Shown here one piece after another: positions 14,659 through 19,301 of a DNA stretch of 64,000 bases. Both the position numbers and the translations under genes were made by a program. How positions within the stretch are numbered: position 1 is the stretch's first letter; each line of letters begins with the position of its first letter. This DNA is from Vermamoeba vermiformis (Eukaryota). The notes under the pieces are model-generated. The model was not told where the DNA came from. It was given only the letters and a program-made list of their open reading frames with translations, and ran no database searches. The stretch spans positions 1-64,000 of the forward strand of contig JBEWZL010000048.1 of assembly GCA_045837725.1 (NCBI GenBank), given 5' to 3'.

Positions 14659-17600
14659 ATGGAACACTTTATTAAGGATATTAATGGGTATGAGAACGCT
14701 TCATCAACTCATGAACGCTCAAGCAAGCCTGAATCCAGAGGACTCGGTTCTGGCTATTCAATTTTGAGCCACGGATCTCGGAGCTCAATATCCTCGACAG
14801 GAAAACCAAAAAATGTACATTCAGCTTCGAACTTTTCGGATGGTAGCTGGAACAGCTTCGATAGCAGAGGTCAGATCACCGCTCCCACTTGTATTTTCAA
14901 GAACAAATTCAGAAATTATAAATCTCGTTATTTTGTAATTTATGTATAATACTATAATGAATTATTGGAAGATAATCACTGACAGTATCTTTCAACAGAT
15001 GAAGATCAAAAACATCAATTCATTTTCCCTTCGTTTGGCTTGTATAGCTTTAATGTCGATCGATTGGAATTTATCGAAAAATTAGGCGAAGGTAAATACA
15101 ATTTGACTTGCGGTTGATCCATTCATAATCTGATTTTTAACGAAAATAGGGGCATTTGGCGAAGTGTGGAAGGTGCGCGGAGATTACTCAATAATATATT
15201 ATCGATCATTAATAGTAATATGGGTCTAATTCAATAGGCGTATTACCAAGGAGAACTATTCGCCGTCAAAATATTGAAAGACAACAATAACAACAACATG
15301 TTCACCACCTATCAAAAAATATCCAGTGAAATTGCGTGGTAAGTGTTGTAGGCTGAATACATTATTCCATCGTGTGCTAAAACCGATCCGTTCAGTGCTC
15401 TTCCGCACATCAATGTCGTGCGTCACTATTCGCTGTGCTCGAAGAATTACCAGGAGTTCTTTTTGATCATGGAGTACGTGCCTCGCGGTGCATTGGCGAA
15501 CTTACTTAGAACTAGCAAGTGGGTACGTAATGCTTCAACTTCACTCCGCACAAGTGCTGCTAATGATGGACGAATATTATCAGCTGCGCGGAAATCTGGC
15601 GGTCAGATTGCGAATGGCTAAGCAAATTGCACGAGGAATGGCAAGTATTTGCAATGAAATTGTTTGTCGAGATTATTGCTGCTGACTGTTGTTCTAGTTT
15701 GCGCTGCATTCGACCAATCCCTCGATTATTCACCGTGATTTGAGGACGGCTAATATTCTCGTGGACAAAGACTACAACGTTAAAGTCGCTGATTTTGGTC
15801 TCTCGGTGCCCAACACACCTGAGAGCTTTGCCGCGCGAGGGCGGTGCGGCTACATTCGTTGCATTGCACCAGAAATCTTGACACGACGAGAATACAGTTC
15901 TAAGTCCGATGTATATAGCTATGCTATCCTATTATGGTATGAAATCTACTACCTTCTCGGTTTTTAACTGTGTTAACTCGTGCGCGTAGGGAACTTCTCA
16001 CATGCAAAGAACCATATGAAGGAGTGTCAATGCATGACATCCGCAAGATGATTATAGCAGATGTCAAGCCAGATATCGAAGAGATTAAGAGACTAAATGT
16101 AAGTCAGTTCAGTACGCGTAGCAGATCTGTTATTAACGCGTGTCAAATAGGTGACCGAGAAAATTGTCTCTTTAATCGAACAATGCTGGCATAAGGATCC
16201 AAACGTTCGTCCGTCCTTTGGTCAGATATTAGATACATTAGACGAGGTATTAATAAGACATATCATTGCTGACGTGCGAGTAACTCATGACGGTTGAGCA
16301 GATCTTGTGCGTGCCCTTGGACATTTTCGAAGCAGCAGAACGAGGCAAATTATCTCTCGTGCAAAAGAGGCTCGAGGCTTTATCTCGCAAAAAGCTTCAT
16401 TTGACAAATAAGAACACAAAGACCAGCTCTGAAAACGACGAGAAAGAAGCACTGCTGCCGCCCGATTTCAAAGCGTACACTGAGCCCAACAATGTACATA
16501 CGAACACCAATAACAGTAATGAGAAGTCTCACAAACTGGCGACGAGCTGGGGCAGTGTCGAAGATAATTTGCGCGGCTCGGCCAATGGACCTGAAATGTT
16601 CAAGTTGCAAGAGATTATTTCGGATCTGAATGGAGTAGTAGAGCGACAGTTGTTAGTAGCGAGAAGAAGAGCGTTGGCAGAGTCAGATTTGCATGGCAGA
16701 ACAGCTTTGGTAAGTCATTCTTTAGTTTTTCTTTGGATTTGAATCTGAGTTGTAGCGAAACGTCAAATTTATTTGAGCTAGTGCACAATTTACATTGCAC
16801 CAAGCCAAGTTATAGAAGTATATCAGACTTGGAAGCTTATGCTACGGATCTAACTCGGTTGCGAAATGACAAAGAAAGAATCCGTAAGGAAAGTAAAAAA
16901 ACCCGTAAAATAGGGCACTACTATTTCAAAAGAAATAGGTAAGCGTGTCATTATTCGCAGCGAGTAGATTTCGATCGCAAATAAGCTCCAGTCCAAATTT
17001 CTCGTTGGGTCGACATCTGGCTAGTTACTCTTGCGGAAAGCGCTTTTCGTACAGAGACCGCTTCTTAGCGCGACCCTTAGAGACCTTCTTCTTCTCTTGC
17101 TTGGGTACGTGAGGGGTAGCGAGCTTGACCTTGCCGGCCTTGTTGATGTTTCCGTGGCGAACTAAAGGCTGAAAGTTAGATGTGATCTGACTACTGTAGT
17201 AGGCGGTACAAGAGAGGCGTATTCTTACCCATTGTGCGTGTTGTGAAATGTGAGGATTTTAATGACTGAGTTGCTCTTTTAAATCCTCGGATCTGCGAAA
17301 TAAGCCAGATTGAACTTCGCCAAATTTTACGCAACGGAAATTTCACTTTAATAGTACTGGATCCGTTACTAACAATAACAAATGCAGATATACTCAGCGA
17401 TGCATGGATTCTATGATGTGGTAGAGTAAGTTAACTCTAAAAACGGATCTTGGATCTGACCATTGTCTTAGGTACTTGGTGGAGGTCGGAGCGTTTTTAG
17501 ATCAACAAGACGGAGACTTTAAGACCGCCCTTCACTACGCGGTGTTGAACAGTCGTGTGGACATTGTGCGATACATTTGCAAGTGTTTATTGCGTCGTCA

Positions 17601-19301
17601 ATCACTGCTCGCACCTCACGCCCAATCAGCGGCCTGGTACATCAATGTGCGCGACAGACAAGGCATGACACCACTACACTATGCCTGCATCAGAGGCAAT
17701 ACTGAGGTACACGACTCTTATAATCAAACAATATGTATTCTAATCCCGTCAGGTCATCAAAACGTTAATCGAATCTGGAGCCGATATTTATGGCCGCAAT
17801 AATCTGCAATTGACCTCGTTGCACTTGGCTTGCAGACACGGACTCGATCACGTTGTGGTGTTGCTACTCGAGACCGAACAAAAACAAATGTTGGCGGATC
17901 AGATCGTGCCTGAGTTGGTTCCCAAGATGGTTGGGGAACTCGAAGATTTCTTCAAAAAACGATTCAAAATCGACGAGAAGAGTCAAAACACAGACGAGTC
18001 GCATAAAAAAGACAAAAATCACGTGAAGAGCATGCGCAGCAATCAAAAGTTCAGCGAGCTGGTTAACTTTGTGGACCGAGACAGGCGATGTTGCTTGCAT
18101 TATTGTGCCTTTGGTGCAAAAGAAAACATCATTGAACTGCTGCTTCAATACGGAGCCGACGTCAACGTCAAAGACAGGGTAAGAAGATACAAGTGACTCT
18201 TATTATATGATCGAGACTGACGCGACAATCCCTCAGTATGGCATGTCCGCACTTCACTACGCCAGTTTTTTCGCGAACAAAAAGCTCGTTAAAGTGCTGT
18301 TGCAACAAGGAGCCAAGAACAACGAGTACTCGATCGATCTACTCGGCATTAGTCCCTTGCACTGCGCGTGTTTCTTCGGTGATCCCAACACGGTGGAAGC
18401 ACTCGCCAATGAGAACAACATTGACATGCAAGATGACGAGGGAAACACACCGCTTCACATTGCAGCTATGCACGGTCATCAAAAGGTACCAAGTTCAGTG
18501 ATTTAATATCGTCTAATAGCTATGCAGGTGACTTTGGTCCTGCTGCAAAAACGAGCAGATCCGTTCAGACTCGACAAAAAAGGCTTCAATTGTCTGCATC
18601 ACGCAGCAATGTCAGGCCACACAAGTGTCACGGAGATACTGTTGCAAGACGTCAAATCACTGTCCAAGCGTGTCATTCAGCACTACAATCCTCTCGAGTT
18701 GTTGGAGTCACGTGATCCCAATGGCATGACTGCGTTCCATTGGGCAGTGTACCAAGGACAGATTCAAACTGTTACATCGTTACTCGAGAAATATCCTCAG
18801 CTCGCTCACTCGCAAGATCTCAACGGCAACACGCCGTTTCATTGTGCGTGCGAACGAGGCAACGAACGCATTGCAATCATGCTGGCCGAGGCAGGAACTG
18901 ATCTATTTCAACGTAAGTAATATAATCACGTCAAGTCTATTATAACCTAGTATCCTCAGGTACTAACGATGGCACGACACCGTTGCACTACGCGGCGATG
19001 TCAGGCAATGTAAATATTGTAAAATTTTTAGTGGAAAGTGGTGCATTTGTAAATTGTTTAAACAGCGCCAAGTAAGTCACAACACATACTGCTCGCGACT
19101 GCAATACCTAATCTTCTGCCTAGACAAACTGCTCTACATGCTGCGTGCATTGGTGGCTCGGTCGAAGTAGTTGCGTATTTGTTGCTGCGATCAGCGGTGA
19201 TTATGCACGACTGCTATGGCCGTACGCCGTTGTCTTATGCGCTTGAATACAAACGCGATGGGATCATCTCGTATTTCATGAATAGAGCGCAGCGAAATTG
19301 A
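14659..19301 (+). CDS. Tyrosine kinase-like (TKL) protein kinase followed by many ankyrin repeats
   Basis: LGEGAFGEVWK, FAVK, HRDLRTAN, DFG, APE, SDVYSYAILLW and RPSF motifs; spliced in frame to TPLH/TALH ankyrin repeats (about 16300-19300); stop TGA at 19299-19301. Confidence 0.9.
17025..17232 (-). CDS. RPS30: 40S ribosomal protein S30 (eS30), 46 aa, two exons, nested antisense in an intron of the kinase-ankyrin gene
   Basis: ATG-G (17232-17229), GT-AG intron 17228-17162, exon 17161-17025 translate to MVRHGNINKAGKVKLATPHVPKQEKKKVSKGRAKKRSLYEKRFPQE*, matching the eS30 pattern HG.....GKV...TP...KQEKKK...GRAKKR..Y..RF. Confidence 0.88.

Follow-up and report, generated by a model that had tools for sequence, protein, structure and literature searches.

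Nested genes are put at about 10% of the genes of Drosophila and about 1% of those of humans by PMC4394429, which gives two thirds of them as antisense to their host. For the ribosomal protein eS30, the N-terminal His is described as helping to stabilise codon-anticodon pairing at the A site (PMC11698992), and the tail as forming a GPNAN loop on helix 18 (h18) of the 18S ribosomal RNA, where it is displaced by EDF1/Mbf1 (PMC7486125). Both subjects meet in the DNA analysed here, a stretch of 64,000 nucleotides (nt) of Vermamoeba vermiformis (assembly GCA_045837725.1, contig JBEWZL010000048.1, positions 1 to 64,000 of the forward strand), which is called the window throughout. An earlier reading, made from the letters of this stretch and here called the sequence-only reading, had proposed an eS30 gene lying antisense inside a long intron of a gene for an ankyrin-repeat protein.

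In the present study this proposal was followed up with profile and similarity searches, four RNA runs (X5, X7, X21 and X23; runs with only a small share of the sequence, such as water and aquifer metagenomes, were left aside) and a contig from a relative. We hold it to be very probable that the locus contains a functional, independently transcribed eS30 gene, placed antisense in one intron of a protein-kinase/ankyrin-repeat gene. Whether this eS30 is accompanied by a second one, what its shortened C-terminus implies and what role its structured 3' end may have are considered along with the evidence.

Results

Host gene and long intron

The reading frame of the host runs on the plus strand, where ...AESDLHGRTAL ends at 16709 with the donor gtaagt next to it, and resumes at 17388 as IYSAMHGFYDVVE, which completes an ankyrin repeat and is directly preceded by ...ccgTTACTAACaataacaaatgcag. 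The joint 16709>17388, which skips 678 nt with GT..AG ends, was present in one contig each of the RNA runs X5 and X7. A host transcript spanning the intron thus exists, and the frame is indeed split in the middle of an ankyrin repeat, as the sequence-only reading had it. The contigs of both runs are also spliced over 17426-17471 (46 nt), that of X5 additionally over 17705-17750 (46 nt). The tactaac that had been pointed out as branch point was found as TACTAAC, 15 nt before the host 3' splice site.

Twelve further host introns of 38-58 nt are predicted between 15238 and 19301 by an open-frame model, a heuristic seeking the fewest introns, whose models of the kinase region are uncertain and two of whose predicted introns are the RNA-confirmed ones. 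Since the neighbouring and predicted host introns measure 38-58 nt, the 678-nt intron has 12-15 times the local size; it had been estimated at about ten times, correctly in that it is far longer than its neighbours, but with a factor that proved somewhat greater. Pfam places a protein-kinase domain in the host exon 15698-15955 (71.8 bits) and ankyrin repeats in five downstream host exon translations, from 17473 to 19301. The features of the locus are compiled in Table 1.

Table 1. Features of the host intron and of the nested eS30 gene, with their identity to the related contig L001 where aligned.
Feature	Position	Strand	Support	Identity to L001
Host exon end (linker and start of first ankyrin repeat, ...LHGRTAL)	16581..16709	+	contigs of X7 (16581-16708) and X5 (16625-16708) run straight to 17387/8	
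Host intron, 678 nt, GT..AG, branch-point-like TACTAAC at 17367-17373	16710..17387	+	RNA joint in X5 and X7	
Conserved long imperfect hairpin, 174 nt, three-way top, filling most of the 3' untranslated region	16823..16996	-	minimum free energy, L001 identity	
eS30 3' untranslated region as covered by RNA contig	16825..17024	-	X5 contig; X21 and X23 reads continue below 16826	
3' region	16858..16989			74%
eS30 exon 2, coding part, (V)RHGNINKAGKVKLATPHVPKQEKKKVSKGRAKKRSLYEKRFPQE, stop TAA at 17027-17025	17025..17161	-	Pfam, PDB matches, L001	91%
eS30 intron, 67 nt, gtaaga...ctaac...cctttag, phase 1	17162..17228	-	no Met if unspliced; X23 reads	49%
eS30 exon 1, short 5' untranslated region (approximate start, at least about 20 nt) and ATGG, ATG at 17232-17230	17229..17255	-	loose read ends, median 24-28 nt, ending ...CACAATG	
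Upstream intronic DNA	17233-17289; 17319-17387			51-52%
TATA-like TTTAAAAG, A/T-rich	~17283-17276	-	after conserved box	
Conserved box AGTTCAATCTGGCTTATTTC[G/T]CAGAT, presumed promoter element	17290..17318	-	58-86 nt upstream of eS30 ATG; L001 ~2323-2351	26/29 positions
Host exon IYSAMHGFYDVVE, 38 nt, then 46-nt intron 17426-17471	17388..17425	+	RNA contigs; same exon in L001 2216-2253 (-)	

Structure and splicing of the nested eS30 gene

On the minus strand of the long intron, the stretch 17028-17159 matches the Pfam family Ribosomal_S30 (PF04758) with 57.7 bits (E 1.3e-15, profile positions 3-43 of 58), more than twice the curated gathering threshold of 27 bits, so that the HMMER check suggested by the sequence-only reading came out clearly in its favour. 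Among the eS30 chains of solved ribosomes in the PDB, 72 distinct sequences match this stretch at E<=0.01, the best being 6zj3_Se with 48 bits. The predicted protein belongs to the eS30 family on the strength of its profile score and core motifs. No other eS30-like stretch was detected by tblastn within the 64-kb window.

The coding part of exon 2 belongs to a stop-to-stop frame (17025-17258) that contains no Met, and the ATG at 17232-17230 must therefore be spliced onto it. In the intervening intron the ctaac lies at 17179-17175 and the cctttag ends at 17162, after which exon 2 opens with TT at 17161. Reading through this intron leads to a stop 13 codons past the ATG; the spliced product has 46 residues and ends in ...YEKRFPQE. 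Use of the splice is seen in 16 reads of X23, which pass 17162 into the reverse complement of ...CACAATG and so join ATG-G to TTCGC (consensus agreement 0.6). Reads cannot be placed on so short an exon 1, and the junction is therefore visible as loose read ends and not as a listed joint. Tracks based on open reading frames (ORFs) miss the gene, its start codon being confined to an exon of 4 coding nt; a real gene thus escapes such annotation, and the claim of a complete two-exon antisense gene overlooked by the ORF track is borne out by Pfam, by the RNA evidence and by a conserved orthologous locus in the metagenome contig L001, described below.

At the acceptor two AGs lie 6 nt apart (tttcAG cctttAG, 17162-17170, minus strand), of which L001 has the second only. 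Use of the first (tttcag, 6 nt upstream) was considered and rejected, since it would shift the frame and yield a product bearing no relation to eS30, and since the corresponding AG is absent from L001. A third exon supplying a C-terminal tail was likewise discarded: a GT follows CAAGA in the window and in L001, yet the contig of X5 runs without a gap from 17153 to 16825, nothing eS30-like occurs in the six-frame ORFs below 17024, and indels between the window and L001 break every frame. Reassignment or read-through of the stop codon was dismissed as well, the stop being TAA in the window and TGA in L001 and the sequence that follows only 54% identical and gapped.

Divergent core and missing tail

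Relatives of the protein were taken from an exhaustive search of 1.84 billion representatives, which gave 441 matches at E<=0.001; only one of these, P0002, lies below E 1e-10, and the next match scores 52.8 bits. Among the best 150 of the 441, the residues after HG are SLAR in 145, other variants in 4 and NINK, as in the window protein, in P0002 alone, which agrees with the divergent HGNINKAGKV stressed by the sequence-only reading. The lack of a typical C-terminal tail was also correctly seen: the window protein stops 3 residues after RF, as against a median of 21 in the relatives (119 of the best 150, in which the motif GRA..R...RF was found). Tails of at most 6 residues after RF occur in 4 of the 119 (P0002, P0049, P0131 and P0136), and P0131 and P0136 look like truncated models. 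P0002 (65 amino acids, 93% identical, ending RFPQE) was also the sole relative obtained from a word-index search of 5.8 billion proteins, and the longer-form search of that index yielded no fused or longer forms of the protein. The early stop 3 residues past RF is common to the window, L001 and P0002. The 20 additional N-terminal residues of P0002 (MGK...NWT) fit a 57-nt intron retained in frame at the same position as the eS30 intron of the window, which would make the deposited model longer than the true protein, probably by 19 residues.

Pfam profile positions 44-58 are unmatched in the window protein, and the feature of the C-terminal tail, a basic run and a loop of the G-P-N type contacting h18, is absent from it. 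Because the stop falls 3 residues after RF, the h18-binding loop is missing, and because this tail feature fails, the protein is regarded as a truncated variant of its lineage. The basic residues of the eS30 tail would fall in the part that is missing here. The conserved N-terminal His is present: ...VRHGN aligns with ...KVHGS of the PDB chains, the tail before the His being one residue shorter.

Conservation in a relative

L001, a metagenome contig of 2762 nt, is collinear with the window from 19310 to 16858 in three blastn segments of 75-86% identity. The 38-nt host exon lies at 2216-2253 on its opposite strand, flanked by ag and gtaagt, and the eS30 ATG at 2411, 157 nt from that exon (155 nt in the window). 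The eS30 gene of L001 consists of ATGG, an intron of 55 nt that contains an in-frame stop, and an exon 2 that opens with TTCGC and ends in TGA at the same codon. Synteny is thus kept on the side of this host exon together with the eS30 coding sequence, in line with what the sequence-only reading would have led one to look for in relatives.

These data also bear on whether the gene is functional at all. A decaying, truncated pseudogene or relic of eS30, transcribed by chance, would agree with the fact that this is the shortest eS30 among those compared and has lost the conserved tail, and with the low depth in X5. We regard such a relic as very improbable, as frame, splice sites and position of the stop are kept in the window, in L001 and in P0002. 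Of the 12 nt by which the window and L001 differ in 45 codons (stop included), 9 belong to synonymous codon changes and the other 3 alter two residues; the coding sequence is 91% identical, nearby non-coding DNA about 50%, and the mRNA is abundant in X21 and X23. A processed retrocopy was rejected because the gene carries its own intron, spliced out and placed as in L001, and because purifying selection acts on the frame.

Expression

In X21 and X23 the depth over exon 2 (17055-17111) is 191 and 86, respectively, and over the host exons 0-3.4 per bin (both mate directions summed in each case), so that host coverage is about 100 times lower than that of eS30 in these two runs. The eS30 intron and the DNA upstream of it (17169-17339) have a depth of 0 in all four runs, coverage holes proving nothing by themselves. 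A 329-nt contig of X5, a run nearly identical to the window, matches 16825-17153 with one mismatch and no gap; because it is ungapped, a single transcript must extend from exon 2 through 200 nt or more of 3' untranslated region (UTR) without further splice. X21 and X23 show three fixed coding differences (17067, 17079 and 17085), all of them third-position and synonymous (codons read by eye). The description of the gene as highly transcribed accordingly holds for X21 and X23, but not for X5, where eS30 and host are equal in depth, nor for X7, where the host alone was recovered.

The two units are convergent, with the presumed end of the eS30 unit about 50-115 nt from the host 5' splice site, and for antisense nested pairs PMC4394429 proposes inverse regulation. 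Together with the low coverage of the host in X21 and X23, this would suit a regulatory device in which one of the two convergently transcribed genes, eS30 or the host kinase, holds down the other through polymerase collision or antisense RNA. We consider such a device improbable: both RNAs occur in X5, X21 and X23, at equal depth in X5, and the mRNA of a kinase is expected to lie below that of a ribosomal protein in any case.

Some further peculiarities of the reads deserve mention. Several opposite-strand joints lie close together where exon 2 begins (17146-17162), e.g., 17154/17156 (12 reads of X21 and 7 of X23); they may be cDNA snap-back artefacts formed where a very short mRNA ends. Just past the eS30 stop a 3-nt deletion, with placements at 17005/17006, is carried by 13 and 21 of 34 reads in X21 and by 4 and 9 of 13 in X23, and five X21 reads skip 80 nt with the non-canonical ends AA..GG (16928-17009); both suggest that the 3' UTR varies among strains or alleles. 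The RNA runs filed under the species label of the best DNA match differ from the window by several percent, and spliced transcripts nearly identical to it are contained in X5 and X7, which are filed under two other organism labels. It is probable that diverged strains are grouped under the one species label and that the organism also occurs in samples labelled otherwise.

A second eS30-type mRNA

A further set of reads, 506 in X21 and 448 in X23, matches the window over 17124-17156 only and differs from it on both sides. The mRNA from which they come shares HGNINKAGKVK with the nested gene (32 of 33 nt identical, with one silent difference at 17133); by manual translation, ...ATGGTCAAG stands before this shared core and NSTPKIEPKD after it. 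Judged at 17133, it accounts for 529 of 631 reads in X21 and 475 of 526 in X23, i.e., 5-9 times the window type. It may stem from a paralog in the same genome, in which case the nested gene would be a minor copy, or it may stem from another organism in the samples. The nested gene is probably one of two eS30 genes and the less expressed of them, although the chances are about evenly balanced. The notion of a specialised eS30 paralog, put forward in the sequence-only reading as an alternative, gains some support from this commoner second mRNA in X21 and X23, while its origin in the same genome is not established.

We give somewhat less than an even chance to the possibility that the nested gene is the sole eS30 gene, that the second mRNA belongs to another, related organism in the X21 and X23 samples, and that no specialised paralog exists. 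It fits the observation that neither the word index (near lengths and longer forms) nor the best 150 relatives contain an NINK-type protein besides P0002. It also fits the RNA runs, which are several percent off the window and whose loose ends, with an agreement of 0.6-0.83, suggest mixed templates. However, the second type has HGNINKAGKVK in common with the nested gene at nearly every nucleotide and then diverges sharply on both sides, which a paralog explains better than an ortholog from another species, and the low depth of eS30 relative to the host in X5 and the lack of an eS30 contig in X7 would be odd for a sole gene.

Flanking elements

Upstream of the nested gene, the conserved box and the TATA-like stretch (Table 1) are the putative promoter elements; a second copy of the box was not found within the window. 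On the other side, an AATAAA at 16773-16768 (minus strand) suggests that the true end of the eS30 transcript lies nearer 16750; the RNA runs yielded no mapped transcript ends.

The hairpin in the 3' UTR has a minimum free energy of -57.2 kcal/mol (z -4.1), which none of 200 shuffles equalled, and the plus strand folds equally well. RNAalifold, applied to the window and L001, gave one compensatory pair in the inner stem. Six strain differences fall into the outer arms, five at unpaired positions (16834, 16960, 16970, 16971 and 16980) and one (16840) changing U-A to U-G, where unpaired positions make up 18 of about 100. A search of 16600-17500 against Rfam 15 gave no relevant match at E<=10, with a chance hit to CRISPR-DR (E 3.5) located in the host exon, and no second copy of the hairpin, such as a MITE or other repeat would have, was found within the 64-kb window, the best chance match being 12 nt long. 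A box C/D or H/ACA snoRNA was considered for the hairpin and rejected, since the motifs are poor and by eye not conserved and Rfam gave no match.

Candidate roles of the hairpin are 3'-end processing or termination before the host exon, control of the mRNA, or a separate small RNA. That it is a functional RNA or processing signal in its own right, e.g., as an RNase III-type site of cleavage and termination that would stop eS30 transcription before the host exon, or as a small-RNA precursor, appears to us rather unlikely, although several properties speak for it: the z score, a conservation well above the intronic background, strain differences that avoid paired positions, the compensatory pair, and the location between the eS30 stop and the host exon. 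On the other hand, only two or three sequences and a single compensatory change enter the comparison, the equal folding of both strands leaves the acting strand ambiguous, and Rfam is silent at the threshold given, as are the RNA runs as to transcript ends.

Discussion

Several observations weigh against a functional, independently transcribed eS30 gene in this intron. The libraries of X21 and X23 are unstranded, with the first mate on the plus and minus strand about equally often, and the strand of the transcript therefore rests on the coding frame and the splice signals. Both runs come from a related strain and not from that of the window (645 of 836 placed X21 reads are only 90-95% alike), for which reason the exact junction of the window is seen as loose ends only. 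In X5 the word depth of the eS30 contig (6.64) is about that of the host contig (6.78), unlike a typical ribosomal protein gene, contig word depth being a poor measure of abundance, and X7 has a host contig but no eS30 contig. Finally, L001 ends before the upstream exon of the host, so that only one side of the nesting is documented in the relative. Set against the spliced host transcript, the Pfam and PDB matches, the necessity and use of the eS30 splice, the mRNA in X21 and X23 and the conserved frame in L001, these points leave us with high confidence that the nested gene is functional and transcribed in its own right; its promoter, its poly(A) site and the incorporation of its product into ribosomes are presumed.

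The promoter of the nested gene would lie within the last ~150 nt of the host intron, between the host branch point and the eS30 start. In the order of transcription, the conserved box would be followed by the TATA-like stretch, a short 5' UTR, the ATGG exon, the 67-nt intron, the coding exon and a structured 3' UTR of at least 200 nt, most of which would be the conserved hairpin. A nested unit from ~17320 to ~16750 would explain almost all of the extra length of the host intron, and what remains would be about the length of a normal intron, leaving room for the host splice signals. The protein would have kept the N-terminal His and the basic helix and have lost, in this lineage, the loop that in other eukaryotes binds helix 18 of the 18S RNA at the mRNA entry channel.

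If the nested gene is the sole eS30 gene, this C-terminal h18-binding loop is dispensable in the lineage; if it is one of two, it becomes a candidate for ribosome heterogeneity. A more far-reaching version, to which we give little credit, is that two eS30 genes are kept and that the tail-less nested copy leaves empty the h18 site at the entry channel, which the canonical loop occupies and which EDF1/Mbf1 takes on collided ribosomes, so that a distinct ribosome population would arise; the hairpin would then act in processing and termination, governing this copy and protecting the host exon from convergent transcription. Irrespective of such roles, the locus indicates that even in a genome with introns of ~50 nt an entire gene for a ribosomal protein can be retained within an intron from one species to another.

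A narrow full-text search (nested gene, ribosomal protein, intron, opposite strand) found no published nested eS30 gene, which is weak evidence. The nested antisense arrangement itself is well known, and the lineage-specific eS30 variant is moderately unusual.

Compared with eS30 of solved ribosomes (6zj3_Se, 8oo0_Se, 7olc_Se), the window protein is ~60-70% identical over 40 residues and shares the N-terminal His-Gly, AGKV and the basic helix region TP.V.KQEKKK...GRAKKR..Y..RF; it differs in having NINK for SLAR, one residue fewer before the His, and no counterpart of profile positions 44-58. Should the second mRNA come from the same genome, the nested gene would resemble duplicated ribosomal protein genes such as eS30A/eS30B (PDB 9axt, 4u3m) in being one of two eS30 genes, but the two types here differ in protein sequence right after GKVK, whereas such pairs are near-identical. 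The locus resembles the nested genes of Drosophila and humans in that the unit, as reconstructed here, would sit wholly within a single intron of a host gene unrelated to it, runs antisense to that host and has a conserved counterpart in a relative. In contrast to these, introns measure ~40-60 nt here, and the unit would end ~50-150 nt from the host splice sites; because the introns of this genome are so short, the nested gene constitutes nearly the whole of its host intron.

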